The position numbers and the translations under genes were made by a program. From NCBI GenBank assembly GCA_963711405.1, contig CAVQDZ010000001.1:90703-154702 (forward strand): a stretch of 64,000 nucleotides of DNA, written 5' to 3'. The DNA is from an uncultured Chloroflexia bacterium. Its GTDB lineage: Bacteria > Chloroflexota > Limnocylindria > Limnocylindrales > CSP1-4. Below the pieces are notes generated by a model. The model did not search any database and had not been told where the DNA came from. It saw only the letters and a list, made by a program, of their open reading frames with translations. Below, one piece after another: positions 1,360-60,486 of this stretch (position 1 is the first letter of the stretch; the number at the start of each line of letters is the position of its first letter).

Positions 1360-1421
1360 GAGCTTACGGAACGCGGCGCGCCGACCTGGGCGCGCCGTTC
1401 GGGACGTCGGTCACGGAGTGG

Positions 1422-2825: not shown

Positions 2826-2904
2826 GAGCTCTCCTCAGCTGGGGCACCGGAGAGGGCCGCAGTATAGGACGCACTCTGGTTGGGGCCGTGCGCGGGCCTA
2901 TGAG

Positions 2905-4014: not shown

Positions 4015-4036
4015 CTGCGCTCACGCCCGCGCAGTG

Positions 4037-4940: not shown

Positions 4941-4944
4941 GTCT

Positions 4945-5865: not shown

Positions 5866-5887
5866 TGCGCCCCCTGCGTGGTTCGTC

Positions 5888-6787: not shown

Positions 6788-6823
6788 ATTCCTTCCTCTC
6801 GCGTATCAAGCATTCTAGAAACA

Positions 6824-8803: not shown

Positions 8804-8887
8804 GGCACGTTTGAGGCGCTCCGCCGGAGTACCAATACCAAAGGTCCGGATCGACGGGCGCGCGCGCAGCCGCGATGCTCACCATCA

Positions 8888-10180
8888 GTGGCGAACGAGG
8901 AGCCGACCCCTGCCGGACTGACCGACTTTCACGCCGGCGGCACGCCAGACGCTCCCAACGGTGCCGATTCGCGTGAGCGCACACTGCTCCGGCGCGTCCG
9001 TCGGACCGTCTACGGCCTGCTCACGATTCTGGGCGCCCTGCTGCTGGTCAGCTTCGTGCGCGCTCCGCACGAGCTGCTCGGGCTGCTCGAGTTGGCCTGC
9101 GTGGTGGCCTTGGGCGCGGGAATGTGGACGCAGCACGAGCTCGGCCGGCGGCTGAACGAAAGGCGCGCGGCGCGCGACGCGGGCCTGACACGCATGCTCC
9201 AGGGCATGTCGCGCTCGGTGTCATCGGACGCGATCGTCCAGACCATCGTGGATGAGTTGCGCGGCGCCGCGGATGCCGACCACATCCTCGTCGCGCGCCT
9301 ACGACCGGTCGACCGTGTCGTCGAGGCGACGCTTGTCTCAAGCCGCGCACGCGTGCCGCCATCGCGGACCGTCCTGCCCGCGGGCATCCTCGACCCGTCG
9401 CGGCTGCCCGCGGCGCGCCGCCAGCTGCCGCCGGGAACGGATGCGCGTGACCACGATGCGCAGATCGTGGCCGACGAGATCGCGCACCGCCTGTCCGAGT
9501 CGTACGCGCTGCCCAACACGCTGGCCATGCCGCTCGTGGCCGATAACGAGATCCTTGGCGCGCTCATCCTGTCGCGCCGCCAGCGGCGCGACTGGTCGAG
9601 CGCTGATCGGCGCCTGTTGTCGTGGGCGTCGGCGGAGCTGTCGGCGGCGTTGACTCGGGCGTTCGCCTTCGAGCAGGCGGAGAACCAGGCCAACATCGAC
9701 GCACTCACCGGCCTGCCCAACCGGCGCTACCTCGAGGAGCTGCTGGCCAGCGCCGGCCCGCGCCGCCGCGCGATCGACCAGCTCGGCGCGCTGATGATCG
9801 ACCTGGACCATTTCAAGAAGCTCAACGATCGCTACGGCCACGCTGCCGGCGACCGCGTTCTGCGCTCTGTTGGCGAGCGCATCTCCAACGCGGTTCGAGC
9901 TGAGGACACGCCGGCGCGCTACGGAGGCGAGGAATTCGCCGTGGTGTTGCGCAAGGCCACGGCCGAGCAGGCCGTCGAGATCGCCGAGCGCATTCGCGTC
10001 CAGATCGCGGAGATCCCGCCGGTCGAGATGGGCATTGCCGAGAAGATCACCGTGTCAATCGGCGTCGCGGTCGGCGAGGTACGCGTGGGCGAGGTGCCCG
10101 GCTTGCTTGCGGCCGCGGATGACGCGTTGTACAGCGCCAAACGCCAGGGCCGTAACCGTGTCGTCCTGGCTGCCGCCTAG
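8888..10180 (+). CDS. Membrane-anchored GAF-GGDEF diguanylate cyclase
   Basis: Two N-terminal TMs, GAF domain, DALTGLPNRR, IDLDHFK, RAED I-site and RYGGEEF active site. Confidence 0.92.
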   Translation: MANEEPTPAGLTDFHAGGTPDAPNGADSRERTLLRRVRRTVYGLLTILGALLLVSFVRAPHELLGLLELACVVALGAGMWTQHELGRRLNERRAARDAGLTRMLQGMSRSVSSDAIVQTIVDELRGAADADHILVARLRPVDRVVEATLVSSRARVPPSRTVLPAGILDPSRLPAARRQLPPGTDARDHDAQIVADEIAHRLSESYALPNTLAMPLVADNEILGALILSRRQRRDWSSADRRLLSWASAELSAALTRAFAFEQAENQANIDALTGLPNRRYLEELLASAGPRRRAIDQLGALMIDLDHFKKLNDRYGHAAGDRVLRSVGERISNAVRAEDTPARYGGEEFAVVLRKATAEQAVEIAERIRVQIAEIPPVEMGIAEKITVSIGVAVGEVRVGEVPGLLAAADDALYSAKRQGRNRVVLAAA

Positions 10181-11124
10181 CGTCCTCCGAACCAGAGGCT
10201 GACAAGGTCGCGCCCGATGAGCGCGCCCGTTGCCTCCACATCGGGCCGCAGCTCGGCTTCCAGCTGTGCGCGTAGCTGTGCCGGAATAGGGCTGCGCTTG
10301 ACCTGGCGTCGGTTCATTCGGCTGTGCCGGAAGCGGTACGCCGCGCGGTCGCGGCGGGATTCACCGAGCACTATCCGCGCGACATCGTCGGTCACGAAAG
10401 TGCCCGCGCGACTGTCGAGCATGCGCCGCACCCAAACGCGCTGGCGGTGACTGGGGTTGCGTGCCGCAAGCGATTCGGGCTGGTAGTCCGGATCGACGTC
10501 CAGGAACGAGAGCGCCGCGCGCAGCGCTGCGGCGGGGTCGGCCGCGAAGTCGTCGAAGACGATGACGTGGACGCGATCCCGGCTGAGGGCGTCGAACCAG
10601 CGCCGCAATGGCTCGGCGAACAGCGCGCTCTCGCGGTAGACGGTGCCCAGAACGTTGGCAGCGCCGGGCAGCAGCTTGCCGTGCGCGCGCTCAGCGTCCG
10701 CGGCCATTGCCTGCGCGAAGTCGGTGAACTGCTCGTGACCCTGGGACACGCGTTCGTTGTGCAGCGCGTGGAGGAGCTCGACCGGATTGCGCAGCATTGC
10801 GATCGCGTACGCGTCGGGCTGGAACTCGTGCACCAGCCGGGCTGCCTCATGCGAGACGAGATAGCGCGTCGTGGCCTCGCCCAGGCGCGTCTCGTCGCGC
10901 GCATCGTCAAAAAGCGCCAGGTAACGCGCCGCGTCGCGCTCGTAAACGAACGGCTGGTCACCCCGCCAGCCGCGCACATCAGGGCAGAAATACATGGGCT
11001 CCTTGAACGGCGACATGTAGATCCGGGGATGACCGGCGAGCAACTCGTAGAGCGAGGTCGTGCCCGCCTTGGGCGCCCCGACGATGAACAGGTCGGGCCT
11101 GGCTGGGGCCTGGGCATTGGTCAC
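10177..11124 (-). CDS. Sulfotransferase family protein
   Basis: FIVGAPKAGTTSLY, KEPMYF, GEATTRY, MLRNPV motifs. Confidence 0.88.
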   Translation of the reverse strand: MTNAQAPARPDLFIVGAPKAGTTSLYELLAGHPRIYMSPFKEPMYFCPDVRGWRGDQPFVYERDAARYLALFDDARDETRLGEATTRYLVSHEAARLVHEFQPDAYAIAMLRNPVELLHALHNERVSQGHEQFTDFAQAMAADAERAHGKLLPGAANVLGTVYRESALFAEPLRRWFDALSRDRVHVIVFDDFAADPAAALRAALSFLDVDPDYQPESLAARNPSHRQRVWVRRMLDSRAGTFVTDDVARIVLGESRRDRAAYRFRHSRMNRRQVKRSPIPAQLRAQLEAELRPDVEATGALIGRDLVSLWFGGR

Positions 11125-11139
11125 GCGTAGGGACGGAAG

Positions 11140-12468
11140 TCAGTTCGCGCTGCGGCCGAGGACAATGACGTTCATGCCCGCGCTCGCCGCCGCCTGCGCG
11201 TCAGCGACGCGCCGAGAGTCGACCAAAACGCGTCCGGGCATACTCGCCACAAGCGATGTCCAGTCGAGCGTGTGGTACTCCGGCCACTCAGTCGCGATGA
11301 CCAGACCGTCTGCCGCGCGAGATGCCGCCACGACAGTGGGACACACTTCGAGGGTGAAGCCGCTTCGATCTGCCGCCTTCGCGGCAGCCTGACCGCCCAT
11401 CGGGTCGTGGCCGGCGACAGTCGCGCCGCGTGCCGCCAGGGCGTAGCAGATGCGCAGCGAAGGAGATTCGCGGACATCGTCGGTGCCGGCCTTGAAAGTC
11501 AGCCCCAGGACGCAGATGCGCTTGCCGTTGAGATCACCGACTGCCCGCTCAAGGCTGTCAACGACCCACCCCGCCTGCAACCCGTTGGAGCCGTCGATTG
11601 CGTCGATGATCGGCGTCGCGACCCCGTGCTCATGGGCAAGCGCCGGCAGCGAGCGCGCCTGAGACGGCAGGCACGACCCTCCAAAGCCCGGCCCCGGCGT
11701 CATGTACGAGCGCCCGATGCGTCGGTCGAGACCGATGCCGTCGACAACTGTCGCCACGTCGGCACCGGTCGCCGCCGACAGGCGCGCCAATTCGTTGGCG
11801 AAGCCGGCCTTCATAGCCAGGAACGCATTGGAGCCGACCTTGATCATCTCCGCGCTGGTCGCATCGGTCACGACGAGCGGGGCACGCACACGGCGGTAGA
11901 CACTGCGCAGCAGGGGCAGGGCACTCGACTCGTGTTCGGGTCGCGTGAGGCCAACGACTACGCGGTCGGGATTCAGGAAGTCGTCGATGGCCGAGCCCTG
12001 GCGCGTGAACTCCGGATGGTGCGCCAGCTCGACGTCCGCGTCGCGATCGCTGGCCAGCTTCGCCAGCCGCGCCGTGGCGCCGGGCATCAGCGTGCTGCGC
12101 ACGATCAGCGTGCGCGGCGCGGCCTGGTCTTCAGCCAGGCCACTGACGGCGCGCTTGACCGCGCGCGCGCTCCAGTCGCCGCGCTCGTCGAGTGTGCCGA
12201 CACAGATAAACACCGCCGTGGCGTCGCGCGCCGCGGCCATAGACGTGGCGAAGGTAAGTCGGCCGGCGTCCACGGCATCGCGCACGGCCTCGTCGAGGCC
12301 GGGCTCGAAGAACGGCAGGCGGCCGGCATTGATGCCGTCGATGCGCGCTTCGTCGTTGTCGACGCAACGAACCGACCAGCCAAGCGTGGACAGGCATGCC
12401 GCGGTGACGAGGCCCACGTAGCCCGCGCCCAGAACGGCGAGCTTCAGCTCGTTCTCTTCGTCAGCCAC
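11140..12468 (-). CDS. ugd: UDP-glucose/GDP-mannose dehydrogenase family
   Basis: GAGYVG Rossmann motif, PEF.RQG, AEMIK..SNAFLAMK, GFGGSCLP catalytic Cys, GLTFKAGTDDVRESP. Start GTG 12468. Confidence 0.9.
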   Translation of the reverse strand: MADEENELKLAVLGAGYVGLVTAACLSTLGWSVRCVDNDEARIDGINAGRLPFFEPGLDEAVRDAVDAGRLTFATSMAAARDATAVFICVGTLDERGDWSARAVKRAVSGLAEDQAAPRTLIVRSTLMPGATARLAKLASDRDADVELAHHPEFTRQGSAIDDFLNPDRVVVGLTRPEHESSALPLLRSVYRRVRAPLVVTDATSAEMIKVGSNAFLAMKAGFANELARLSAATGADVATVVDGIGLDRRIGRSYMTPGPGFGGSCLPSQARSLPALAHEHGVATPIIDAIDGSNGLQAGWVVDSLERAVGDLNGKRICVLGLTFKAGTDDVRESPSLRICYALAARGATVAGHDPMGGQAAAKAADRSGFTLEVCPTVVAASRAADGLVIATEWPEYHTLDWTSLVASMPGRVLVDSRRVADAQAAASAGMNVIVLGRSAN

Positions 12469-12504
12469 GGGCGAAGCATACGAGCGCCCATTAGGCTGCG
12501 GTAA

Positions 12505-14431
12505 ATGAGTCCCGGACGCAGGTCTGCCCCGCCGCGCCCCAAGCGCATCGACGTCCCGACACGATCGGAGACGGACTCCGTCACGCCCGAGCTTGATGAG
12601 GAGATCGAGCTCGACCCGGATCAGCCGCCGTACGAGACGCGGCCGAGTGCGTCGCGCGGCGACGACGTGCCTCTCTTGGGCAACGACGAGCTGGCGCGCA
12701 TCTTCTACGAGATCGGCGACATGCTCGAGATCGCGGGCGAGCTGCCGTTCAAGATTGGCGCTTATCGCCGTGCAGCCGAGTCGATCGCGCACTCGCCCCA
12801 GGACGTTGCCCGCGCCTACCGGCTGCGTACGCCGCCGCGGCTGCCCGGCGTCGGCAAGGCCATCGACGAGAAGCTCGCCGAGCTGGCCGATACGGGCCGA
12901 TTGCGCTACTACGAACGGCTGCGGCGCGACGTGCCGCCGTCGGTGGTCACGCTGCTCCAGGTGCCCGGGTTGGGCCCGCGCACGGCTGGTGAGCTGTGGC
13001 GCCAGGGCGGCATCGATTCGCTCGATGCCCTGGAGGCGGCCGCGCGCGCCGGCGAGCTTCGCAATCTGAAGGGCATGAGCGCAAAGACTGAGGAGCGGCT
13101 GCTCGATGGGCTAAAGACGCTGCGCGCGCGGCCGCCGCAGCGCATCCGCCTGGGCACGGCGCAGGACATCGTCGATCGCGTGGTCGGCTCGCTCGAGCTC
13201 GCCGCCGGCGTCACGTCGGTGACCGCGGCTGGGTCGTATCGCCGGCGCCGCGAGACCATCGCCGACATCGATGTCTTGGTCGAGACCACGGATCCGGCCG
13301 CGGTCATCACCAAGCTGCACGACTCGCCATGGGTGGAACGAGTCGGCGGCCACGGCGGCCGGCCCGGTGGCGGCTCGCGCACGACCGTGCAGCATGACCC
13401 GCGGTCCGCAGATCGACCTGATGACTATGCCCGTCGGCGCCGCGGGGACGTATCTCGTCCACTTCACAGGCTCCGCGGCGCACAACGTCCGGCTGCGCGA
13501 GATGGCTCGCGACCGCGGCTGGTCGCTCTCCGAGCACGGCTTCACCGCGCTCGACGACGAGACCCGCCGCGTCACCTTCGAGACGGAGGCGGAGGTATAC
13601 GACTTCCTTGGCCTGCCGTTCATGGCACCGGAGCTGCGCGAGGACCGCGGCGAGATCGAGGCGGCGCTCGCGGGCACGCTTCCCAATCTCGTCACGCGCG
13701 CCGACCTGCAGGGCGACTGCCACACGCATTCCGACTGGTCGGACGGGCACTTCTCCATCGAGCGCATGACCGAGGCGGCACGCGAACACGGATTGCGCTT
13801 CCAGGTGCTGACCGACCACACCCAGAGCCTGACCATCGCCAACGGCCTGACGCCGGCGCGCGTGGAGCAGGAGCGCCGCGTCATCGGCGAGCTGAACGAA
13901 TCGTTCGCCAGGGAGGGGATCGACTTCCGCCTGCTTCACGGCTGCGAGCTGGAGATCCGTGTCGACGGCATGCTCGATTACGACGACGCCCTGCTCGCGC
14001 GCTTCGACGTCGTCGTCTGCTCGCTCCATGTCGGTCGGCGCCAGCCGCGCGCGCAGCTCATGGCCCGCTACCGGACTGCGCTGCGCAACCCGAACGTGGA
14101 CATCATTGCCCACCCGTCGGGGCGCAAGATCGGCCTCCGCGACGACCTGGACCTGGACTGGGATGCGTTCTATCGAGAAGCGGCACAGACGCGCACCGTG
14201 CTCGAGCTGAACGGCTCCGACGAGCGGCTAGACCTGGACGACCGGCGCGCCCGCGCCGCCCACGAGGCGGGCAATCGCTTCGTGGTCGACTCGGACGCGC
14301 ACTACGTGCACGAGTTCATCAACCTCGACTGGGGCGCGGCGCAGGCGCGCCGGGCGTGGCTCGAGCCGGCCGACGTCCTCAACACGTTTCCCGTCGACGA
14401 CTTCCTGGCCGAAGTCACGGACCATCAATGA
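12505..14431 (+). CDS. polX: DNA polymerase X / PHP 3'-5' exonuclease, frameshifted at ~13393
   Basis: HhH motifs (LPGVGKAI, VPGLGP), AGSYRR, ADIDVL catalytic Asp pair. Then in another frame QIDL, HFTGSAAHN and a PHP domain (HTHSDWSDG, TDH, AHP, DSDAH). Confidence 0.9.
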
Positions 14432-15837
14432 GCGCCGCTGATGTCGGCCTGCCTTCCACGTTCGACAGTCGAGCTCGGCAGCTGGCAGCGCGCGTCAGCG
14501 CGACACCACTCATCCCGGTCATCGTCGCGGTCGTGCTCGGCACGATCGGCATCGGCGACAAGAGCATCTGGGTCGACGAGGGCATCGCGTTTGCCATGGC
14601 CCGAATGCCGATTCGGGCGATGCTTGACTACATTGCTCGTCAGGAGCTCGTGGCGTCGCCCTACTTCCTTGCCCTCAAGCCGTGGCTGGCGCTGGGCGAG
14701 TCGGAGGCCGCCATCAGGTTGCTTGCCGTCGTCTTCGGTGCGCTCGCCGTTGTGGGGACATGGCTCGTCGCCAAGCGCTACGGAGTTGCCTTCAGGGCAG
14801 CCCTGCTGATGGCTGTGCTGCCGACGCTCGTGGTCTACATGCAACAGGTCAAGGGCTATACCTTGATCGCTGCCGTCAGCGCGTTTTCCACCTGGCTGGT
14901 GCTGCGCCTGATCGACCGACCCTCGCCGTGGCGCGCCATCGCCTATGTCGGCTCGGCGATCCTGATCGCATATGTCAATCCCCTCGCCGCGCTGATCCCG
15001 ATCGCACACATCGGCTTTGTGTTCGCCACCGCCGCCCACGGCGATCGGCGCCGTCTGTTGCTGTTGTTCGTCCCGATCTTCATCGGCTGGATCCCGGTGG
15101 TGGTGTTTGCCATCCGGTCAGGAGATAAGTGGGCGTGGATCCCTCCCGCGACGCCTGATGTCGTGGCGTCCGAGCTGGTTGCCCTCGGTGGCGGCCTTCT
15201 CGTTGCGATAGTCCTCGGCGTTGCGCTGCTTTTCGGAATTCGACGCGACGTCATGGCCCTTTGGCTGCTCGTGCCGCTCGCAGGTGCGCTCTTGGCGTCC
15301 GTTCTGATCGAGCCGGTATTTCGTCACGCATACCTGATTGGCGTGCTCCCGGCCGCGGCGATCATCGCCGCGCGCGCGCCGCGTGTGGTCGTCGCCACTC
15401 TGATCGTCGTTGCCCTGGTCGCCAACGTGAGCTGGTACCAGGCGCCGTCGAGCGAAGACTGGCGCGGAGCGGCCGGCTACCTTGCCGCCCAGGTGCAGGA
15501 CGGCGACGGCCTCGTCTTTGCGCCGGCCTACGTTCGTCCTGCGTTCGGCTACTACGCCCGGATCGGCGAGCCGCTGCTGCCGTCGATGCCGTGGTCTGCC
15601 TCAGACGTCCCCTACTCCGCGGCTCCGAACGACAACGCGCTCAGGGTGGCCGCGCGCATCTGGCTGATCAAGTCCGATCAGCACTACCCGACCGTGCCTG
15701 ACAACGTCGCGGCAGAGATTGCTCGCCGGCCCGTTTTGTCGGAGCGGGACTTCGGCGGCGAGATCCGGGTCATCCTCCTTGGCCCTGATGCGAGCGGTGA
15801 TCGTGCGGCGACCGCTGCTACGCTGGCCGGCCAATGA
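14428..15837 (+). CDS. GT39/PMT-like (GT-C) polytopic membrane glycosyltransferase
   Basis: 3' part of the 1110-aa ORF from ATG 14428 (ATGA overlap): SIWVDEG, SPYF..LKPW, EAAIRL, many TMs, EDWRGAA. Confidence 0.8.
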   Translation: MSAADVGLPSTFDSRARQLAARVSATPLIPVIVAVVLGTIGIGDKSIWVDEGIAFAMARMPIRAMLDYIARQELVASPYFLALKPWLALGESEAAIRLLAVVFGALAVVGTWLVAKRYGVAFRAALLMAVLPTLVVYMQQVKGYTLIAAVSAFSTWLVLRLIDRPSPWRAIAYVGSAILIAYVNPLAALIPIAHIGFVFATAAHGDRRRLLLLFVPIFIGWIPVVVFAIRSGDKWAWIPPATPDVVASELVALGGGLLVAIVLGVALLFGIRRDVMALWLLVPLAGALLASVLIEPVFRHAYLIGVLPAAAIIAARAPRVVVATLIVVALVANVSWYQAPSSEDWRGAAGYLAAQVQDGDGLVFAPAYVRPAFGYYARIGEPLLPSMPWSASDVPYSAAPNDNALRVAARIWLIKSDQHYPTVPDNVAAEIARRPVLSERDFGGEIRVILLGPDASGDRAATAATLAGQ

Positions 15838-17510
15838 GCTACCTGCGGCTGTACCACCAGTCGACCCGCCAGGTCGCGCTCGCCGTGTTCAGCGGCGTGC
15901 TCCAGTCGATCGTGCTCATCCCGATCATCTTCCTGATCCGGATCGCGTTCGACACCTTGATCCCAGGTCGTGACCTGACCGGCCTGGTGCTCGTCGGCGT
16001 GCTGATGACGGTGCTGTACATCGTCAGTGGCGGGCTGTTGTTGTGGAGCCGCGCAGCGGCCCTCGACGGGACGCGGCGCGCGATCGATTCGATGCGCATG
16101 GATCTCGTGGCGAAGATCCAGGGACTGCCGCGCGAGCGCCTGGTCAGTGACGAGGCGTCGCACGTGCACAGCCTGCTGGTCTACGACACGGAGCGGGTCA
16201 GCTCCGCGAGCAACGCCCTCGTCGGTCAGCTGCTGCCCGCGGCCGTGTTCTCGATCGCGCTCGGCCTGGCCCTGCTGTACATGAACTTGCTGCTGTTCCT
16301 GACCGTCCTGGCCGTCGTGCCGATACTGACCGTCGCGATGCGCTTCATCGGCCGTCGCGCGTCGCAGCGCATTGCCGTCGGTCGGAACACCTTCGAGCGC
16401 TTCAGCAGCGGCGTCCTCTTCCTGGTCGAGCGCATGGACCTGACGCGCAGCCAATCCGCTGAGGCCGTCGAGCGCTCGCGTCAGGAGCGCAACATCAAGG
16501 AGCTGGGCCAGGCCACCGCGAGCATGGGTGCGTGGTCCGCGGCGCACACCGTCGCCCAGGAAACGGTGACGTCCGTCTCCTGGTCGCTGATCCTGATCAT
16601 CGGCGGCATCGCCGTCGCCGGCGGGGCGATGAGCGTGGGCGACGTGCTCGCCTTCTCCGTCGCCGCGATGATGCTCAAGCGCTCGGTCAATTCGCTTGTC
16701 GGCGCGGTGCCCACGATCCTCGAGGGCGGCTCGTCGATGGCAGCCATCCAGGCGCTCAGCGCCGAAGCGGACGACGACGCCTACCGGGGTGAGCGCCCGG
16801 GCACGCTCGAGCGACAGCTGACCATGACCGGCGTGACGTTCAGCTTTGGCGTGGAGCCACTGCTTGATCGACTCGACCTGCAGCTGTCTGCCGGCGACGT
16901 GGCCGTGATCAGCGGCCCGAGTGGCGCGGGCAAGACGACGCTGCTGCACCTCGTGCTGGGCTACTACCGACCGAGCGCGGGCACGATCGCCGCGGACGGA
17001 ATCGCGTATGACGAGCTCGACCTGCCGGCCTTGCGCAAGCAGATGGGCTTCGTCGCCCAGGATCCGGTCGTGTTCGCCGGGACGCTGCTCGAGAACTTGA
17101 CCTACGGCACCACCGATATCGATCACGACCGCCTCAACGAGGCCTGTGCGCTGGCCGGCGTGGACGAGTTCGTCAAGCGCCTCAGCGACGGCTATGACAC
17201 GACGGTGGGTGAGGGCGGGGCGCTGCTCTCCGGTGGCCAGCGCCAACGGATCGGGCTGGCCCGCGCTCTGTACCGTCGCCCGGCTGTGCTGCTGCTCGAC
17301 GAGCCCACCAGCCAGCTCGACGAGCGCCTCGCCGTGCGCCTCGTCGAGAGCCTGCGCGCGCTGCCGTGGCGGCCGGCGCTGCTCATCGTCAGCCACGAGC
17401 TGGGCCGCGTGGCGGCACATGCGGACGCGGTCTACGAGCTGAGCGGCGGCCGCCTGCACGAGCGCACTGATCGCGCCACGGACGACCTCCTGAGCGCAGC
17501 CGTCGCTTGA
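15834..17510 (+). CDS. ABC exporter, fused permease/ATP-binding
   Basis: N-terminal TM domain, Walker A GPSGAGKTT, LSGGQRQR, LLLDEPTS. No C39 peptidase domain. Confidence 0.93.
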   Translation: MSYLRLYHQSTRQVALAVFSGVLQSIVLIPIIFLIRIAFDTLIPGRDLTGLVLVGVLMTVLYIVSGGLLLWSRAAALDGTRRAIDSMRMDLVAKIQGLPRERLVSDEASHVHSLLVYDTERVSSASNALVGQLLPAAVFSIALGLALLYMNLLLFLTVLAVVPILTVAMRFIGRRASQRIAVGRNTFERFSSGVLFLVERMDLTRSQSAEAVERSRQERNIKELGQATASMGAWSAAHTVAQETVTSVSWSLILIIGGIAVAGGAMSVGDVLAFSVAAMMLKRSVNSLVGAVPTILEGGSSMAAIQALSAEADDDAYRGERPGTLERQLTMTGVTFSFGVEPLLDRLDLQLSAGDVAVISGPSGAGKTTLLHLVLGYYRPSAGTIAADGIAYDELDLPALRKQMGFVAQDPVVFAGTLLENLTYGTTDIDHDRLNEACALAGVDEFVKRLSDGYDTTVGEGGALLSGGQRQRIGLARALYRRPAVLLLDEPTSQLDERLAVRLVESLRALPWRPALLIVSHELGRVAAHADAVYELSGGRLHERTDRATDDLLSAAVA

Positions 17511-18649
17511 GAGCTTCCCGCCAGCAGGCGCTGCTGCTGCGCGCTGCGCTCGTGTCTGGCGACGCGGGCCTGGCCGCGTGGCATGGCTGGCGGCGTGCCG
17601 CGGACCTCGACGAGATAGACCGTGGCTCGGCGCGTCTGCTGCCGTTGCTGTGGTTCAACCTGCTGGCCAACGAGGTCGACGACCCGTGGATGCCACGCTT
17701 CAAAGGCATCTATCGCCACACCTGGTTTGGCAACCAGGTGTGGATGCGCAACGTGCGCGAGGTGCAGGCATTGCTGGCTGTTCACGGCGTCGAGCCGCTG
17801 TTTCTCAAGGGCATCGCGCTGGCCAACGTGTACTACTCGAATCCGGGCTTGCGGCCAATGGACGATCTGGACATCCTGATCGCGCCCGAACAGGTTCCAT
17901 CCGCGCTGGACGCCCTGGCGGCCGGAGGTTGGCGATGCATCGTCGAGCGGCCCACGATGGTCCTGCGCACGGTCCACGCGGTCGAGCTGCTGTCTGCCGA
18001 TCAGCACAACCTCGATGTCCACGCCCATCTGCTCCAGGGCAGCCTGAACTCCGATGTCGACGCCCGGCGTCGGGCGCGCGCAACAACCGTCCAGCTTGCC
18101 GACGGCCCGCTGACGGTGCTCGATCCGACCGATCAGCTGCTCCACGTCCTGGTCCACGGTGTGGAGTCGGATCCGCCCGCGCCGCGCTGGCTCGCCGACG
18201 CGCTGATCGTCATGCGTCGTGAACCTGCCATCGACTGGCGCCGACTGGCGGCCGACGCCGGCGCCGAGAGCCGCTCGCTGGCCGTGGCCCGCGCGCTCGC
18301 TGAGCTGGTCGAGGTCTTCGGCCGCGACAACGTGCCGGTTCCTGCCTATGTGCTCGACGCGTACCGCGACAGGCTCCGATCGTCAGCGCAGGCTCGTTTC
18401 GAGCAGCGCGTCGCCTCTGGTCCACGTGTACCCGTCGTTGGCTATGCGCTCCAACGCACGGTGGACTATCGACGCTGGCGACGCAGCGGAAACGGTGACC
18501 CCGAGCGAAGCGCCGGTTTCGACGCCTATCTGCGCCTCAACTGGGGCGTCGAGAGTCGGCGTGACCTGGTCGTGCAGGCCTCACGCCGCGGCACGCGGAC
18601 GGCACTGGCGGATCTGCGGGCCGCATCGCTCAAGCTGCGCCCGGAGTGA
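17507..18649 (+). CDS. Nucleotidyltransferase family protein (NTP_transf_5-like)
   Basis: LFLKGIALA..Y...GLRPMDDLDILI, LDVH, LLHVLVHG, RWLADA signature. Confidence 0.85.
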   Translation: MRASRQQALLLRAALVSGDAGLAAWHGWRRAADLDEIDRGSARLLPLLWFNLLANEVDDPWMPRFKGIYRHTWFGNQVWMRNVREVQALLAVHGVEPLFLKGIALANVYYSNPGLRPMDDLDILIAPEQVPSALDALAAGGWRCIVERPTMVLRTVHAVELLSADQHNLDVHAHLLQGSLNSDVDARRRARATTVQLADGPLTVLDPTDQLLHVLVHGVESDPPAPRWLADALIVMRREPAIDWRRLAADAGAESRSLAVARALAELVEVFGRDNVPVPAYVLDAYRDRLRSSAQARFEQRVASGPRVPVVGYALQRTVDYRRWRRSGNGDPERSAGFDAYLRLNWGVESRRDLVVQASRRGTRTALADLRAASLKLRPE

Positions 18650-19785
18650 CAAGCGCGGTGGTCGTTGACGCCAAGTGGCCGCGGCCGGCGTCCGACGCAG
18701 CCTCCCAGCGCACGCTCCAGATCGTCAATGAGCTCGATCACCTGGGTTTCGACGTTCACCTCGCAGCCCTCTTCCCGACCGAGGCCGGCGGCGAGGCCGG
18801 CATACCCATCGAGCTGGGGGCCGCGCGGCGTGTTCCCGTGGCAGGCGGCTCCGCGCTGATCGACTATCTGGCCCAGCACGTCGCCGACTTTGATCTGGCG
18901 CTGGTGTGCTGGACGCGGACCGCGCAGGCTGTCCTGGGACCTCTTCGAACTGCAGATCGTGATCTGCCGCTGTGCTTTGACACGCAGGATGTCAACCACG
19001 TTCGCGAGTACCGACACGCGCGGGTGACGGGCAATGCCAATCTGCTCCGGCGCGCGCTGGCGATGAAGGCGGCGGAGCTCGGCGCCGTGGCCGCCGCGGA
19101 CCTGACCCTGGCGATCAGCGAGGCTGACGCGGCGACGCTGCGCGCCGGCGCGCCGGATGCCCGCATCGAAGTCGTGACGATGTCCGTTGACCGGCGCGCC
19201 TCTGCGGTGCCCGGGCCGGACGGTCGGCGTGGCGCGGTCTACCTGGGCAATTACATGGCCTGGCACAACGTCGATGCGGCGACGTACCTGTGTCGCGAGA
19301 TCGTGCCCGCCCTCGATGCGCTGAATTCGACCCTGCCCGTGGCGCTCGCCGGCGCCGGCCGTCACGAGCTGATCGACCAGCTCGCCTCCGACAGAGTGCA
19401 AGTCGTCGGCTATGTCGACGATCTCGTGGCGCTGTTCGACAGCCGGCGCATGTTCGTGGCGCCGTTGCGCGTCGGCTCGGGCGTGAAAGGCAAGCTGCTC
19501 GCCGCGTTAGCGGCCGGGCTGCCCGTGATCGCGACACACATCGCGGCGGAGGGGGTGCCGCTCGTCGACGGGCGCAGCGCGCTGCTCGCGGATACACCTG
19601 AGGCCTTTGCGGCCGCATGCGCGCGGCTCGAGCACGACGACGACATGTGGCGAACTTTGTCCGAGGGCGGTCGCGCGGTCGTGGCCGAACACTTCAGCCC
19701 GGCGGTGGTGCGCGACCAGGTTCGAACCGTGTTCGAGCCGCTCCTCGAGGGCCGTGCTGGACGAGGCGCGCGGAGCGCTGGGTAA
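18646..19785 (+). CDS. Glycosyltransferase family 4
   Basis: DTQDVNH, YLGNY..HNVDA, FVAPLRVGSGVKGKLLAALAAGLPVIAT. Confidence 0.88.
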   Translation: MTSAVVVDAKWPRPASDAASQRTLQIVNELDHLGFDVHLAALFPTEAGGEAGIPIELGAARRVPVAGGSALIDYLAQHVADFDLALVCWTRTAQAVLGPLRTADRDLPLCFDTQDVNHVREYRHARVTGNANLLRRALAMKAAELGAVAAADLTLAISEADAATLRAGAPDARIEVVTMSVDRRASAVPGPDGRRGAVYLGNYMAWHNVDAATYLCREIVPALDALNSTLPVALAGAGRHELIDQLASDRVQVVGYVDDLVALFDSRRMFVAPLRVGSGVKGKLLAALAAGLPVIATHIAAEGVPLVDGRSALLADTPEAFAAACARLEHDDDMWRTLSEGGRAVVAEHFSPAVVRDQVRTVFEPLLEGRAGRGARSAG

Positions 19786-19821
19786 ACTGCGCCAGCACTG
19801 CTGCCGCCAAGGGGGACGAGC

Positions 19822-20288
19822 GTGACCAGCCCGGACGCGCGCCGCTATCGACAGCGCGGCGCTCCGATCATCCACGACACGATCGACAACGAGACGATCG
19901 CCATAAACCAGCTCACCGGCGCGTATTACTCGCTCGAGGGAGCGAGTGCGCTGGCGTGGGAGCGCCTGGCTGCGGGTGCCACCGCGCTGGAGATCGGTGA
20001 TGCTCCTGTGCGCGGCCTACGAGGCGGATCGTGCCGCGATCGATCAGGCCGTCAACGAGTTCGTTGGCCGAGCTGCTCGACGAGGCATTGATCGTCGCCG
20101 TGGACAGCGACCAGGCTGGTGGTGCCGCGGCGGTCGTGCCACAAGCTCCGTCCACAGGCTCGCGCGCACCGTTCAGCGGCCTTCGTCTGCAGCGCTACAA
20201 CGATCTCGAGGTGATGCTCCTGGCCGACCCGATCCACGAGGTGGACGACACCGGCTGGCCCATGCCCGTCGCCGACGCTGGCAAATGA
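19822..20288 (+). CDS. PqqD-family / RiPP recognition element protein with C-terminal DPIHEVD-GWP tail; two +1 frameshifts (~20005, ~20066)
   Basis: Three frames join: MTSPDARRYRQRGAPIIHDTIDNETIAINQLTGAYYSLEGASALAWERLAAGATALEIGDA / LCAAYEADRAAIDQAVNEFV / AELLDEALIVAV..FSGLRLQRYNDLEVMLLADPIHEVDDTGWPMPVADAGK. Three-strand plus three-helix PqqD pattern (YYSL...A..W..L; F+..L....LI). Confidence 0.8.
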
Positions 20289-21376
20289 CGGCGGTTCGGC
20301 TGATTGCCGCCGCCCATGATGCGTTCGCCGAGGCGCGTCGTTCGGCCGTCTCGCGCGATATCGACGGCTGGCTGGCCGGGAGGCCGGTCAGGTTTGAGTT
20401 CGCGGGCGACTTCTTCGAGCGGCAGCTGAGCCGCGCGCTGGCCATCGATCCACAGCCGGCGGCATCCACGCCGTCGACGGCCGGGGCCGCAGCGGCCCTC
20501 GCGCTGCATGCGTGGGACGCGGCCTCGACCGGTGTGCGGCTGGCCTCCGAATCGTGGGCCGGCCTGATGATCAACTCGTCGAGCGTGATCGAGGACCTGT
20601 CCGACGAGCGCTACCAGGTCAGCCTGGAGCTGCGCGGCGCCTTGGCATCCATCCTGGACCGCGATACGGGCGAGGCCTATCACTACGTGCCTGATCCGGA
20701 CAGGCTGCCGGCGTGGGAGACGACGCACCCCGCGCGCGTGCTGCTCGCCGCGTGGGCGCGCGCCCAGGGTCTGATCACGTGCCACGCCGCGGCCGTGGCC
20801 GACGAAACGGCCGGTCTATTGCTGTGCGGCGGCAGTGGCGCTGGTAAATCGACGACGACGCTCGCGTGTCTGGCGGCCGGGATGCGTTCGGCCGGTGACG
20901 ACTACGTGCTGGTCGAGCCGGGCGCTCCGCCCATCGTTCACGCGTTGTACCGCTCGACGCTGCTCGAGATCGACAACTACACCCGACATCAGCGCCTGAT
21001 GCCCGCTGTCGATCACGTCGCGGATCAGCTCGACCGGCGCAAGGCGGTCATGTTCGCGGCCGGAGCGGACCGGCCGCTGATCTCAGGCGGCTTTCCGATC
21101 GCTGGCATGGTCGCGCTGCATGTCGAGAAGGGCAGCCAGCCCGCGTATCGACGAACGAGCGGGGCGGCCGCGCTGCGCGCCCTTGCACCAAGCACGCTGT
21201 CCCAGTTGGGCATGGTCAATTCCGCGGGCCTGGCCCGCCTCGCGGACCTGTGTCGCTCGCTGCCCGCCTTCGAGCTCAGGCTGGGCGACGATCCCGCGCC
21301 TGTGCCCGACATCCTGCGCGGCGTGATCCGCGACGCCCTTCACGACACGACGCTGGCAGTGCCCGCGCATGCCTGA
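20285..21376 (+). CDS. HPr kinase-related P-loop serine/threonine kinase
   Basis: CHAAAVA, Walker A GGSGAGKSTTT, GDDYVLV. ATG 20285 overlaps the PqqD stop. Confidence 0.82.
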   Translation: MTAVRLIAAAHDAFAEARRSAVSRDIDGWLAGRPVRFEFAGDFFERQLSRALAIDPQPAASTPSTAGAAAALALHAWDAASTGVRLASESWAGLMINSSSVIEDLSDERYQVSLELRGALASILDRDTGEAYHYVPDPDRLPAWETTHPARVLLAAWARAQGLITCHAAAVADETAGLLLCGGSGAGKSTTTLACLAAGMRSAGDDYVLVEPGAPPIVHALYRSTLLEIDNYTRHQRLMPAVDHVADQLDRRKAVMFAAGADRPLISGGFPIAGMVALHVEKGSQPAYRRTSGAAALRALAPSTLSQLGMVNSAGLARLADLCRSLPAFELRLGDDPAPVPDILRGVIRDALHDTTLAVPAHA

Positions 21377-22064
21377 CGCCTCGCCCAGCATCGGCGTGGT
21401 CATTCCTGCACGCGACGCTGGCCGTTACATCGCCCAGACGATCGAGAGCGTCCTCGCGCAGACAGTCAGCCCGACCGAGATCATCCTCGTCGATGACGGC
21501 TCGACCGATGACACCGTAACCATCGCGCGGGCCTTTGGCGAGCGCATCCGGATCGAACGTCAGCCGCCGACCGGCCCGGCCGCCGCGCGCAACCTGGGCA
21601 TCAGCGCGACCTCGTCCGAGCTGGTGGGGCTGCTGGACGCGGATGACATATGGCCGACCAACAGCCTCGAGCTCCGCCTCGCTGGACTTCGGGCCGACGA
21701 GGACGCCGACCTGTGCTTCGGCCACATGATCCAGTTCGCAAGCCCTGACCTGCCGATCGAAGAACAAAGCCGGCTGCACGTCGATCCCGCGCCGCAGCCC
21801 GCGCTGAGCTCGACGGCCATGCTTGCCAGGCGAACGGTTTTCGATCGAGTGGGGCTATTTCCTGATCGGCGCGCCGGCGACTTTCTCGAGTGGCTCATCC
21901 GCGCGCGCACGGAGGGCGTGCGCTGGGTCATGCTCGGCGACGTCGTTCTCCGCCGGCGGCTGCACCTGCACAACCTGTCGCGCCGCGAGCCGGAGGCCAA
22001 CGCCCATTACCTGGCCGTCGTGCGCGCCGAGCTGGCCCGCCGCCGGCTCGCGGGCGAGGCGTGA
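21369..22064 (+). CDS. Glycosyltransferase family 2
   Basis: VVIPA, IILVDDGSTD, ARNLG, LLDADD. Confidence 0.92.
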   Translation: MPDASPSIGVVIPARDAGRYIAQTIESVLAQTVSPTEIILVDDGSTDDTVTIARAFGERIRIERQPPTGPAAARNLGISATSSELVGLLDADDIWPTNSLELRLAGLRADEDADLCFGHMIQFASPDLPIEEQSRLHVDPAPQPALSSTAMLARRTVFDRVGLFPDRRAGDFLEWLIRARTEGVRWVMLGDVVLRRRLHLHNLSRREPEANAHYLAVVRAELARRRLAGEA

Positions 22065-22078: not shown

Positions 22079-22591
22079 ATGACCGACGAAGTCGCCAAGA
22101 TCCAGATCCGGCCCATCGTCGAGGCCGACGAAGCTATCGTCGACCGGCTCTGGCAGCTGTACATCCACGACCTGTCCGAGTCGCGCCACTCGCTGCCCAA
22201 CGAGCACGGCCTGTTCAAGTTGGGCCACCTGGCCGACTTCCGCGCCCGGCCCGATGAGTGGCCCGGTTTCCTGGTCACGTATGGCGGCACTCCGGCCGGC
22301 TTCGCGTTCGTCGGCCTGCGCTGGCAGGGGGACAAACGCACGATCGGTGAGTTCTTCGTCGTCCGTGGCGCGCGACGCCATGGCGTGGGCCGACACGTAG
22401 CGCGCGCCTTGATCGGACGCTATCGGGGCTCATGGGAGATCGCCTTCCAGGACAACAATCCAGGTGCGCCCGATTTCTGGAAAGGCGTGGTAGCGGACAT
22501 CACCGGCGCCGACTGGCGTGAGGAGTGGCGGCCGGTGCCTGACAAGCCGCACATCGCGCCCGATCACTGGCTGATGTTCAGCGTGTCCTAG
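22079..22591 (+). CDS. GNAT family N-acetyltransferase
   Basis: EFFVVRGARRHGVGR acetyl-CoA motif, N..A.DFW. AAGGAGG SD before ATG 22079. Confidence 0.85.
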   Translation: MTDEVAKIQIRPIVEADEAIVDRLWQLYIHDLSESRHSLPNEHGLFKLGHLADFRARPDEWPGFLVTYGGTPAGFAFVGLRWQGDKRTIGEFFVVRGARRHGVGRHVARALIGRYRGSWEIAFQDNNPGAPDFWKGVVADITGADWREEWRPVPDKPHIAPDHWLMFSVS

Positions 22592-22610
22592 CCTTGGGCC
22601 GTGCCCGGAG

Positions 22611-23015
22611 CTACCAGTGGTCGGGTCTGAACTCCACGAACTCGATCTGGTTGCCGAACGGATCGCGCGCGAAGAAGCGCGGCCGGCCCGGGATGTCACC
22701 GTCGTGGTCGCGCGTGACGACACCGTTCGCGTCGAGATGGGCGCGAAATGCCGCGGCATCGTCCACCTGGAAGCACGGATGGCGGCGTGACTGGTCGTTG
22801 ACCGCCACGCCGGATGGTTCGCCGAACAGGTGCAGCTCCAGATCACCCGCCTTCCACCACACGACCGTCCCCGGCAGCGTGTCCGGCACGGGCATCTCTT
22901 CGAGGCCCAGCACGTCGGTGAAGAAGCGGCGCGCCACGGCGACCGAGTCGGGCGTGCCCGGGAAAGGCATGGCGACGTGCTGAAGGCGAAGGATGCGCGG
23001 ACGCTGGGCGGTCAT
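22611..23015 (-). CDS. VOC/glyoxalase family protein
   Basis: LQHVAM, FFTDVLGL, HPCFQVDD, RDPFGNQIEF. Confidence 0.88.
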   Translation of the reverse strand: MTAQRPRILRLQHVAMPFPGTPDSVAVARRFFTDVLGLEEMPVPDTLPGTVVWWKAGDLELHLFGEPSGVAVNDQSRRHPCFQVDDAAAFRAHLDANGVVTRDHDGDIPGRPRFFARDPFGNQIEFVEFRPDHW

Positions 23016-23025
23016 GTCGTCAACG

Positions 23026-24315
23026 TCATGACGAGAACGAAGTAACGACGAGGACGACCGACATCACAACGAGCATCAGTGTCACGCCCCAGCCCAGGAT
23101 CAGGTTGATGCGGCCGCTGACGAGATTGCCCATGATCTTGCGATCGCCAACCAGGAGCATCACGAATACGAGGATGACCGGCAGCAGCAGGCCGTTGAAC
23201 ACCTGGGCACTGAACATGACCTGGATCAGCGGCAGGCCCGGGATGAGCATGAACAGGGCGGCAAAGACGATGAAGAAGACAAGCAGCCCGTAGAAGGCGG
23301 GTGCCTCACGGAAGCGCCACTCGACGCCCTGCTCCCAGCCGAACACTTCCGCGGCCGTGTAGGCACTAGAGAGCGGAACCACCCCCAGGCCCAGCAGCGA
23401 AGCGGCGACGAGGCCGATGGCAAAGAGAACGGCCGCGACGTTTCCGGCGATCGGCTCGAGCGCCTGCGCCGCGTCAGCGGCGCTACTGATGTTGAAGATG
23501 CCGGTGGCCCACAGCGTGGCGGCACAGGCGACGAGGATGAACGCGGCGATGACGTTCGTGATGAACACGCCAATCAGGACGTCGATACGCTCGGCGCTCA
23601 TGTCCTCGGGCCGCAGGCGCTTGTCGACGACATAGGCCTGGATGAACTGCTGTCCCCACGGGGTGATGGTGGTGCCCACGACACCGACCACGGCGAGCAT
23701 GTACACGCCGTTGAAGGTGCCTGAGGGCACGATCAGGCTGTGCAGCGCCAGGCCCCAGTCCGGGTTGGCCAGGATCGCCGACACGATGTATGCGCCGGAG
23801 ACGAGCACGCCGACCGCGACAAAAAAGTACTGGACGCGGTTGAAGCTGCCCGCGCCGATGAGCGTAATGACCGCGATCGCAGCGACGACCGCGGAGATTG
23901 GTGCCGGCACTCCAAAGATCGACAGCGCCGCACCGATTCCGGCGAACTCCGAGACGGTCGTGCCCAGGTTGGCGGCGAGCATCGTCACGGTGGCGAAAGC
24001 TGCCCAGCGGATGCCGAACCGCTCGCGAATCAAGCCAACGAGGCCTTTGCCCGTAGCGAGTCCCATTCGTGCGCCGATCTCCTGGGTGATGAGCAGCGCG
24101 ACCTGGGTCACGAGAATCAGCCACAACAGCTGGTAGCCGAACTTCGCCCCGGCAATCGAGTAGGTCGTGATGCCGCCGGCGTCGTTGTCGGCGAAGCCGC
24201 TGACGATGCCCGGGCCGAGCACCGCCATCGTGGCTACAAATCGGGCACGGCGGCCCAAGCGCCGGCGCGGCGCCATAGGCGCGGCAGGATTGACCGGCCG
24301 AGCCGCGGCGCTCAT
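23026..24315 (-). CDS. NRAMP-family divalent cation transporter (NrmT/Mg-type clade)
   Basis: GPGIV..ADNDAGGITTYS, GTTITPW, about 11 TMs. Confidence 0.88.
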   Translation of the reverse strand: MSAAARPVNPAAPMAPRRRLGRRARFVATMAVLGPGIVSGFADNDAGGITTYSIAGAKFGYQLLWLILVTQVALLITQEIGARMGLATGKGLVGLIRERFGIRWAAFATVTMLAANLGTTVSEFAGIGAALSIFGVPAPISAVVAAIAVITLIGAGSFNRVQYFFVAVGVLVSGAYIVSAILANPDWGLALHSLIVPSGTFNGVYMLAVVGVVGTTITPWGQQFIQAYVVDKRLRPEDMSAERIDVLIGVFITNVIAAFILVACAATLWATGIFNISSAADAAQALEPIAGNVAAVLFAIGLVAASLLGLGVVPLSSAYTAAEVFGWEQGVEWRFREAPAFYGLLVFFIVFAALFMLIPGLPLIQVMFSAQVFNGLLLPVILVFVMLLVGDRKIMGNLVSGRINLILGWGVTLMLVVMSVVLVVTSFSS

Positions 24316-60468: not shown

Positions 60469-60486
60469 CGCCAAAGAGCGTACCAG

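Follow-up and report, generated by a model that had tools for sequence, protein, structure and literature searches.

A PqqD-type recognition domain with a leader-like motif on its own chain, encoded beside an HprK-like kinase, a nucleotidyltransferase and glycosyltransferases

RiPP recognition elements (RREs; RiPP, a ribosomally made peptide with modifications added after translation) make it possible to mine ribosomal peptide pathways of any class, and the leader they bind is assumed to be encoded separately. What is the role of an RRE that instead bears a recognition sequence on the same chain? This question is raised by a gene at 19822–20288 of a 64,000-nt stretch of DNA from an uncultured Chloroflexia bacterium (the window, to which all bare coordinates refer). 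Its product consists of a PqqD/RRE domain of the lasso type, an Ala/Pro/Gly/Ser linker of 22 aa and the tail RAPFSGLRLQRYNDLEVMLLADPIHEVDDTGWP; we call it and its homologues the RRE-tail family. The family comprises thousands of clusters and accompanies an HprK-like kinase and a nucleoside triphosphate (NTP) transferase, a pair whose end product is unknown even in linear polyphosphorylated peptide (LPP) clusters and in pseudomycoidin. With one small protein, one kinase and no precursor hunt, it makes a simple testable system and should be of clear interest to the RiPP field.

An RRE and a conserved tail on one chain

In the window the gene runs through three reading frames. Frame 1, from the GTG at 19822 to 19998, translates as VTSPDARRYRQRGAPIIHDTIDNETIAINQLTGAYYSLEGASALAWERLAAGATALEIG; frame 2, over 20000–20062, as MLLCAAYEADRAAIDQAVNEF; and frame 0 as LAELLDEALIV, then the linker AVDSDQAGGAAAVVPQAPSTGS and the tail RAPFSGLRLQRYNDLEVMLLADPIHEVDDTGWPMPVADAGK, with the stop at 20286–20288. 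The three pieces match an intact 151-aa homologue (P0020) end to end: 19822–19998 is identical to residues 1–59 at 50 of 59 positions, 20000–20062 to residues 61–81 at 12 of 21, and 20064–20285 to residues 81–148 at 47 of 71. The window gene thus differs from a whole one by exactly two one-base insertions, which codon reading places at a G near 19999 (GGT-G-ATG) and a G near 20063 (TTC-G-TTG). An earlier note, made from the letters of the window, had described just this, an RRE fused to a leader-like and core-like tail and broken by two single-base insertions, and the end-to-end match bears it out. It had also expected gene callers to miss the gene; the database entry is only an 85-aa fragment open reading frame (ORF) at 20031–20288 (P0050), and the broken pieces on their own matched no Pfam or NCBIfam model.

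The family is large. We found 49 close homologues of the window gene, and a profile of four tails recovered 2,632 cluster representatives from 1.84 billion proteins at E ≤ 1e-3, of which 398 reached E ≤ 1e-10; nearly all are 140–160 aa long and have the tail at the extreme end, and, as scored by this profile, the tail is far beyond chance resemblance. A profile of 45 diverse members reached at least 4,394 clusters at E ≤ 1e-10 among the best 8,000 candidates, which were those scored. Counting one genome per species, at least 534 species genomes carry the RRE-tail (at least 599 pattern matches, 534 confirmed), and the family spans about 20 phyla. For locus comparisons we kept 80 loci from other species out of these pattern matches, drawn from Chloroflexota, Actinomycetota, Nitrospirota, Acidobacteriota, Bacteroidota, Ignavibacteriota, Cyanobacteria, Verrucomicrobiota, Planctomycetota, Gemmatimonadota, Desulfobacterota and others. 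Carriers include cultured cyanobacteria, among them Phormidium sp. CCY1219 (L048), and Rhodohalobacter, and the distribution in the window's own phylum is patchy (9 of 401 sampled genomes). The names given to members at source are limited to ‘PqqD family protein’, ‘PqqD family peptide modification chaperone’ and ‘hypothetical’. A survey of 2025 reports that 21% of PF05402 proteins exceed the length of a discrete RRE, carry no other domain and are ‘unexplored’ (PMC12710340), a fraction for part of which the RRE-tail family may account. Its members could likewise belong to the unpaired group described in the RRE-Finder paper, in which lasso-RRE matches away from lasso genes are put down to false positives or to RREs of uncharacterised classes (PMC7470986).

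Conservation is concentrated in the tail. Among the 49 close homologues Y137, D139, L144, L145, D147, P148, I149, H150, V152, D153, W157 and P158 are invariant and the linker varies in length and sequence; D147, P148, H150, W157 and P158 are also invariant in a wider alignment (A4, 146 sequences). The logo of 276 distinct tails reads [RK]xPFxxPxLx[KR]Y[TS]DM[QE][DE]LLLLDPIH[ED]VDx[TS]GWP; about 8 variable residues come after it, and the motif's F is present in 253, its P in 218 and its L in 253; the window's subclade has Leu in place of the motif Pro (FxGLxL). The set of 276, and one of 345 members used below, were chosen by a pattern requiring DP.H..GWP, and alignments A1 and A4 came from profile searches. 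The earlier note had named a tail not conserved in homologues as one outcome that would count against it; the tail is conserved, and more strongly than the RRE domain itself. When intact homologues were scanned the tail fell into no Pfam or NCBIfam family, and among solved structures it has no relative.

The two parts are not found split. RRE and tail lie in one frame in all 77 informative metagenome loci, the remaining 3 of the 80 being too short upstream to judge, and linkers measure 15–55 aa (median 23, n = 229), none being shorter than 15 aa. Two tandem proteins, P0120 (284 aa) and P0202 (287 aa), have the order RRE, FxxPxL with a degenerate core, RRE, FxxPx[LF] and DPIH..GWP, that is, one FxxPx[LF] motif per RRE and a single terminal DPIH..GWP.

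Several candidates fell away on inspection. Matches of the tail to Tektin-3 and ATP synthase are chance. Apparent stand-alone tails (matches of 40–110 aa) are fragments or broken copies, P0090 lying inside the 157-aa protein P0200 and the copy in genome G101 being a truncated remnant; this rejection leaves aside three short singletons on longer contigs (P0092, P0195 and P0056), which are unplaced. A search for shorter homologues returned three proteins, one of them the window's own fragment.

The recognition motif and the RRE groove

The domain is a lasso-type RRE in sequence and in predicted fold. Intact homologues from three related genomes (P0001, P0002 and L004:1480–1965) match PF05402 (PqqD) over residues 26–95 with 46.6–53.9 bits against a cut-off of 23.4. 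The closest sequence of known structure is TbiB1 (5v1u, E 3e-18), then PbaB1 (9x90, E 3.6e-14), with further matches to TfuB1 (E 1e-8) and LppB (9x8z, E 7.9e-7). All 45 diverse members match the lasso B1 chaperone models NF033530/NF033536 (best E-value 2.1e-15), for which the RRE scores 34.2–40.2 bits, below the cut-offs of 70 and 80; it also stays below those of PqqD from pyrroloquinoline quinone biosynthesis (TIGR03859; 15.2 bits against 46) and of PqqD_rel_X (TIGR04353; 20 bits against 35). In the AlphaFold2 model of P0001 the strands are 18–23, 26–31 and 36–41 and the helices 43–52, 57–67 and 72–88, and the best foldseek match is leader-bound TbiB1 (5v1v_A; template modelling score 0.86, root-mean-square deviation 1.2 Å, 82 columns), in agreement with the PqqD fold named in the earlier note. 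The groove residues Y38, L64, Y68, F82, L86 and L91 of P0001 correspond to Y39, L65, Y69, F83, L87 and L92 of PbaB1, and W48 to W49; they are conserved in the 345 members, position 82 being F in 224 and L in 109, and L64 is at least 90% conserved in the 49 close homologues.

What such a groove binds in known systems resembles the start of the tail. Lasso and LPP leaders carry the recognition motif [Y/W]xxPx[L/V/I/F/A], which discrete RREs are reported to bind as an added β-strand (PMC13381572), and the 2025 survey gives a wider motif, W/Y/LxxP/L/I, with the extended form KPxWxxP (PMC12710340). By its sequence, the [RK]xPFxxPxL of the RRE-tail family is the canonical lasso/LPP recognition motif. 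The earlier note had compared the window's tail with the lasso leader motif; the family consensus makes the parallel closer than could be seen there.

Covariation points to the pocket that would hold the anchor of this motif. Position 78 of the RRE (P0001 numbering) aligns without gaps to D70 of LppB, D70 of TbiB1 and Q79 of PbaB1. The residue equivalent to LppB D70 is described as hydrogen-bonding the leader's anchor Tyr or Trp, D70A as weakening leader binding and Q79D as letting PbaB1 accept Tyr leaders (PMC13381572). Across the 345 members position 78 is A in 185, S in 50, G in 36, E in 18, T in 17 and D in 9, with others, and Asp is found in 5 of 6 members with a Tyr anchor, as against 4 of 329 with a Phe anchor (Fisher p = 2e-8). 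The six Tyr-type members are only 34–43% identical to one another and their nearest neighbours (46–63% identity) combine a Phe or Leu anchor with a residue other than Asp, so the change arose at least five times. A general covariation scan (mutual information with average product correction) was dominated by the signature of one clade.

The structure prediction shows a corresponding pattern of confidence. AlphaFold2, run on P0001 with 146 sequences, gave a mean predicted local distance difference test score (pLDDT) of 85 and a predicted template modelling score of 0.73, with pLDDT of 95–98 in the RRE and 56–67 in the linker, rising again to 89–92 over residues 121–140, which contain the motif; strands are predicted at 127–128 and 135–137 and a helix at 140–145. 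From these two independent lines, the covariation at position 78 and the confidence pattern, we place the motif with fair confidence in the groove of an RRE, its own being the simplest case, which supports the docking proposed in the earlier note. Linkers of at least 15 aa, one motif per RRE in the tandem proteins, and the absence of any split between RRE and tail fit binding in cis. The family is also a natural experiment on RRE pockets that read Phe, Tyr or Trp anchors.

The cassette and the possible roles of the tail

The genes around the RRE-tail gene are collected in Table 1.

Table 1. Positions of the cassette genes and of the parts of the RRE-tail gene in the window
Feature	Position	Strand	Basis
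GT-C type membrane glycosyltransferase (PMT_2), P0201	14443..15837	+	PF13231, E 1.1e-6, 29.4 bits vs 26.1
MsbA-like ABC exporter, permease and ATPase	15834..17510	+	ABC_membrane, ABC_tran
NTP_transf_5, ‘uncharacterised nucleotidyltransferase’	17507..18649	+	PF14907, E 2.2e-33
GT4 glycosyltransferase	18646..19785	+	Glyco_trans_1_4 E 2.1e-21, Glyco_transf_4
Shine-Dalgarno-like AGGGGGA	19810..19816	+	sequence; 5 nt 5′ of the GTG start
RRE/PqqD, first piece (β1–β3 and α1), frame 1	19822..19998	+	P0020 alignment
First extra base, G, place approximate, frame 1 to 2	19999..19999	+	codons, P0020 alignment
RRE, second piece (α2 and beginning of α3), frame 2	20000..20062	+	P0020 residues 61–81
Second extra base, G, place approximate, frame 2 to 0	20063..20063	+	codons, P0020 alignment
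End of RRE domain, LAELLDEALIV, frame 0	20064..20096	+	P0020 alignment
Variable Ala/Pro/Gly/Ser-rich linker, 22 aa	20097..20162	+	translation
Recognition-sequence-like motif RAPFSGLRL	20163..20189	+	conservation, covariation with RRE position 78, pLDDT 89–92
QRYNDLEVMLLA, conserved Y-x-D and Leu-rich stretch, predicted short strand then helix	20190..20225	+	conservation, AlphaFold2
Invariant module DPIHEVDDTGWP	20226..20261	+	D, P, H, W, P invariant in A4 (146 sequences)
Variable C-terminal extension MPVADAGK and stop; stop overlaps kinase start (ATGA)	20262..20288	+	translation
HprK-like P-loop kinase with family-specific N-terminal domain of ~150 aa	20285..21376	+	weak HprK_rel_A, HprK_rel_B and Hpr_kinase_C matches
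GT2 glycosyltransferase	21369..22064	+	Glycos_transf_2, E 2.4e-28
GNAT acetyltransferase, conserved part, start uncertain	22118..22591	+	Acetyltransf_1 E 3e-7; tblastx to L005

The window's cassette genes overlap or abut, and domain matches place the kinase, the nucleotidyltransferase and the glycosyltransferases beside the RRE-tail gene, as the earlier note had it. The start of the PMT_2 gene is uncertain because it is hidden in a 1110-aa open frame (12505–15837), a composite of PolX and the downstream GT-C gene; its stop overlaps the start of the ATP-binding cassette (ABC) gene, and it is conserved in two related loci (L005 and L006, tblastx). The ABC exporter matches MsbA and bacteriocin-exporter NCBIfam models, all below cut-off. 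NTP_transf_5 is also the Pfam family that Supplementary Data 2 of the LPP study gives for the NTP transferase of LPP clusters (PMC13381572). The GNAT gene is confined to the window's lineage (a phmmer match in 1 of 80 loci) and stands outside the general cassette. A promoter and terminator scan was uninformative.

The association holds across the 80 loci. A kinase homologue lies within 8 kb of the RRE-tail gene in 73, and among the 76 whose sequence extends far enough, 59 have it directly downstream. In 44 of 58 loci a kinase start falls no more than 30 nt from the stop of the tail, and 11 show an overlap of 4 nt. Within 8 kb, NTP_transf_5 occurs in 58 loci, GT2 in 69, an ABC gene in 35 and GT4 in 13, and the RRE-tail gene is the first of the cassette in 50 of 66. 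Pfam searches of 47 ORFs from seven loci and of cluster representatives found two to six copies of GT2 together with GT4, GT10, short-chain dehydrogenase/reductase (SDR)/epimerase, N-acetylglucosamine (GlcNAc) 2-epimerase and sulfotransferase, and did not find an Asn-synthase-like cyclase, Transglut_core3 or a peptidase. Neither a lasso cyclase nor a B2 peptidase is in the window cassette. PF13471 was not found in the source assembly (G000, 83.7% complete), whose only TIGR02228 match above cut-off is on another contig (C8), distant from the window; jackhmmer started from G000's own protein found no archaeal-type (SpI-type) signal peptidase in the 80 loci or the window.

The kinase has an HPr kinase core. 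H167, G182, G185, G187, K188 and D205 are invariant in 41 kinases (P-loop GxxGxGKS, upstream His and a DD metal site), and the kinase profile A5 matches the HPr kinase cores 2qmh and 1jb1 (E 5.9e-7). Its N-terminal half is, to judge from profile searches, specific to the family: the full-length kinase occurs in 6 of the 401 sampled genomes, all 6 tail-positive, and 31 others match the P-loop half only; one of these 31, G286, is marked as unpublished and carries no weight in any claim. Against TIGR04352 and TIGR04355 the kinase scores 28.3 and 32 bits, below the cut-offs of 200, and the HPr-rel-A/HprK-B models match the family weakly (17 of 45 RRE members; 40–41 of 41 kinases).

Three observations concern the surroundings. 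In Rhodohalobacter sulfatireducens WB101 (L052:11598–13409) the kinase is fused with GT2 in a 603-aa protein, and NTP_transf_5 adjoins the RRE-tail gene. Just upstream of the window's cassette, positions 1–13110 hold an exopolysaccharide-type cluster with Wzy_C, Bac_transf, several GT4/GT2 genes, a GGDEF-GAF protein, a UDP-glucose dehydrogenase and sulfotransferases at 7895–8800 and 10180–11139; LPP clusters are likewise reported within polysaccharide loci (PMC13381572). Downstream, a 129-aa ORF of no family at 22594–22983 (+) overlaps a glyoxalase-family gene at 22614–23063 (−), which is likely the real one, so that the cassette operon would end at the GNAT gene (22591).

The nearest characterised systems share much of this inventory. 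LPP clusters, described by Popov et al. 2026 as restricted to Bacillota and of unknown final product, use the kinase LppK to polyphosphorylate Ser3 of a separate precursor beginning YxxPxVLxHQxIxFETxxS, from which an SpI-type peptidase removes the leader (PMC13381572). As far as described, they resemble the RRE-tail cassettes in having a lasso B1-kind RRE, an HprK-like kinase, NTP_transf_5, an MsbA-like exporter, glycosyltransferase or polysaccharide surroundings and no lasso cyclase, and their [aromatic]xxPx[L/V] motif and the Tyr–Asp70 logic of the first pocket are mirrored in the RRE-tail family. They differ in having a discrete RRE, separate precursors of 35–200 aa with an N-terminal motif, an SpI peptidase and, 18 residues past the Tyr, a phospho-Ser, whereas in the RRE-tail family the motif is fused at the RRE C-terminus, neither a separate precursor nor a peptidase, SpI or other, was found, the residue at +18 from the anchor is an invariant Asp rather than Ser, the kinase has its own N-domain, and the range is about 20 phyla rather than Bacillota. 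In pseudomycoidin, PsmK puts a phosphate on the C-terminal Ser, and hexoses on this phosphate require the NTP-transferase-like PsmN (PMC6993621). Paeninodin and pseudomycoidin clusters, in the parts described, have in common with the RRE-tail cassette a B1-type RRE, an HprK-like kinase acting on the precursor, PsmN and an ABC exporter, and have in addition a lasso cyclase, a B2 peptidase and a separate precursor, which were not found in the RRE-tail cassette. The literature searched, with supplements only for PMC13381572, yielded no account of this cassette, nor of an RRE to which a recognition sequence is fused. We rate the RRE–kinase–nucleotidyltransferase system a variant of lasso/LPP/paeninodin-type systems.

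Two further groups offer partial parallels. In the borosins (OphMA) and the plant BURP-domain cyclases a precursor is fused to its own maturation protein, and engineers have made leader–enzyme fusions such as leader-fused LynD or LctM. Here too the recognition or modification partner and a substrate-like peptide share one chain, and a leader in cis keeps the machinery ‘loaded’; those proteins fuse an enzyme, however, and in the RRE-tail family the partner is a non-catalytic recognition domain and modification is only proposed. Carriers and scaffolds whose C-terminal tail is reactive, such as LysW/AmCP and the PEARL scaffold peptides, are similar by description in being small proteins that show a conserved, acidic, Trp-containing C-terminal tail to several operon enzymes, and a scaffold would need no protease to release a product. 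Unlike theirs, which is at the end, the RRE-tail motif lies about 8 residues before the C-terminus.

Does the cassette have a separate precursor? Clustering of 12,059 small ORFs from the 80 loci gave no conserved small same-strand family, the clusters being antisense or out-of-frame shadows of conserved genes, and ORFs with the motif were no more frequent than in shuffles (154 of 3,253; shuffles, 157.9). The earlier note had remarked on a missing stand-alone precursor, and none emerged from these counts. Its further suggestion, that the tail is the substrate of the kinase, fared less well, as the tails lack an invariant Ser or Thr and the characterised LppK takes only Ser. The family's only highly conserved Ser lies in the RRE. 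Ser39 (S in 331, T in 5, N in 5 and D in 1 of the 345 members; ~19933–19935 in the window, the Ser of GAYYSLEG) is on the outer face of β3, away from the groove, where other RREs have G, N, Q or K; in P0120 and P0202 it is kept only in the second RRE, the one with the full tail, and is Thr or Val in the first. As an acceptor it is a speculative candidate.

Our best explanation overall, held with a little less than even confidence, is that an RRE with its own recognition sequence serves as a built-in precursor or scaffold. The recognition sequence would fold back into the leader-binding groove of its own RRE, with Phe in the first pocket and Leu in the second, Pro or Leu resting on the divider Phe82, and the residues that follow extending the β-sheet. 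Docking would fix the C-terminal DPIH...GWP module on the RRE surface and present it to the operon enzymes (the translationally coupled HprK-like kinase, NTP_transf_5 and the GT2 and GT4 enzymes) and then to the MsbA-like exporter. By analogy with pseudomycoidin and LPP, the enzymes would lay down phosphate and build sugars on it, the RRE-tail protein itself being the pathway's built-in precursor or scaffold; the family, its motif, the cassette and the fold are observed, docking has indirect support, and that the tail or Ser39 is the modified site, and by what chemistry, we infer. A protein that is its own precursor or scaffold explains cassettes without a separate precursor and leader peptidase, and tentatively, at somewhat lower confidence, also the strictly C-terminal position of the module and the coupling to the kinase. 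The most specific form of the proposal is a self-contained ribosomal scaffold with recognition domain, leader and ‘core’ on one chain, whose DPIHxVDxxGWP end or Ser39 would be phosphorylated by the dedicated HprK-like kinase and then carry a glycan built by NTP_transf_5 and the GT2/GT4 enzymes; we hold it at clearly less than even confidence. If true, about 20 bacterial phyla would make a protein-borne phospho-glycan carrier not seen before, and nature would have its own counterpart of the leader-fused enzymes built by RiPP engineers.

A number of findings weigh against this proposal. None of the 276 tails' Ser or Thr positions is invariant: the residue after the tail Tyr is T in 169, S in 46, N in 25 and D in 22, and that before GWP is T in 142, S in 56, A in 35 and Q in 17, with others. 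LppK is reported to accept Ser and not Thr or Tyr (PMC13381572). No peptidase that could release a product is conserved in the cassette, and a product of ~15 kDa would be odd cargo for an MsbA-like exporter. In the P0001 model the DPIH..GWP module has pLDDT of 60–74 and no regular structure; the contacts themselves, and the choice between cis and trans, are suggested by model confidence, secondary structure and covariation only. The sample of Tyr-type members is six sequences, and in the pattern-chosen sets of 276 and 345 the invariance of the pattern letters is there by construction.

Some of the same findings would suit a permanent adaptor, in which the motif fills the groove and DPIH..GWP recruits or activates enzymes that act on some other target, such as a lipid, a glycan or a different protein, and the RRE-tail protein stays unmodified. 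A tail without an invariant Ser or Thr, a cassette without a peptidase and rich in sugar enzymes (GT2 in two to six copies, GT4, SDR/epimerase, GlcNAc 2-epimerase, sulfotransferase), the adjoining exopolysaccharide cluster and the family-specific N-domain of the kinase all agree with this, as does the report that LppB is insoluble without its leader (PMC13381572), since a leader in cis would then stabilise the RRE. An adaptor gives no reason for retaining a peptide-binding fold, however; DPIH..GWP, extremely conserved and placed strictly at the C-terminal side, has more the look of an end that reacts or is presented, and no alternative substrate is evident. We consider the adaptor rather unlikely. 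Binding of the tail outside its own groove, either to the N-terminal domain of the kinase or to the RRE of another copy with formation of oligomers, would account for the strict co-occurrence of tail and full-length kinase in our sample and for their translational coupling, and covariation does not separate cis from trans binding. Yet the joint replacement of Phe by Tyr in the tail and of Ala by Asp at position 78 of the RRE implicates the pocket of the RRE rather than the kinase, the motif is ordered in the monomer model, and tandem proteins keep one motif per RRE; we regard this arrangement as improbable. Finally, the tail might be an autoinhibitory pseudo-leader that holds the groove until a separately encoded precursor displaces it. 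Its motif equals known leader motifs and RiPP precursors are often small and overlooked by gene callers, but the 80 loci hold no conserved small ORF family and no enrichment of motif ORFs, and no cyclase or peptidase was found to process such a precursor, which makes a pseudo-leader very improbable. The interpretation in the earlier note thus divides: the leader-like motif and its binding in the groove stand, and the role of the tail as a substrate is unproven.

The two extra bases

Are the two frameshifts real? Comparison of sequences within and beyond the source assembly suggests, with good confidence, that the extra bases are an assembly artefact. The assembly, a bin of 10 contigs (3.14 Mb, 83.66% complete), holds two rpoB–rpoC loci that are 92.3% identical (L089, C6:28700–36700; L090, C7:19950–27950) and therefore contains two related populations. 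On C7 rpoC is intact; on C6 it is divided between two frames by single extra bases at 34523 and 34585, 62 nt apart and outside homopolymers, the same pattern as in the RRE-tail gene. The PolX gene of the window (12505–14428, +; HHH_8, HHH_5 and palm followed by thumb and PHP) breaks into two frames at ~13393, and that gene in a relative (G028, locus L005) has two other shifts. On the window's contig (C1), a UvrA paralogue (C1:1085829–1088081) is spread over three or more frames, a 71-aa island among them, and a class-I aminoacyl-tRNA synthetase (C1:1076614–1078804) over two, further signs of indel errors. Intact genes include gyrA, secA, uvrA and ileS.

The alternative, a fresh pseudogene in this organism whose cassette is decaying, draws on the occurrence, within 64 nt, of two independent +1 shifts that both lie outside homopolymers, and on the failure to find a second copy in the assembly at its 83.66% completeness. 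Nor does any read or contig bridge either site: the best of the public read runs contained at most 0.13 of the sampled words, and no contig bridged 19999 or 20063. Against decay stand the like pattern of extra bases in the essential rpoC on C6, with its intact copy on C7, the splits in PolX, the UvrA paralogue and the aminoacyl-tRNA synthetase, and a completeness of 83.7% despite only 10 contigs. The window gene keeps every family-invariant residue, the ratio of non-synonymous to synonymous change (pN/pS) of its tail against L005 is 0.11, and the other cassette genes around it are all intact. Three relatives of the same genus have intact copies, and none of the 77 informative metagenome relatives has a broken one. 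We therefore judge genuine frameshifts unlikely.

Two other interrupted genes were seen. In the close relative at locus L006 (assembly G018, 59% complete, 10 contigs) the kinase gene (10272–11588) is frameshifted near its 3′ end. In the window, a multicopper oxidase ORF at 60366–61619 (+) stops inside Cu-oxidase_2 (profile positions 22–98 of 137), which may be another frameshift.

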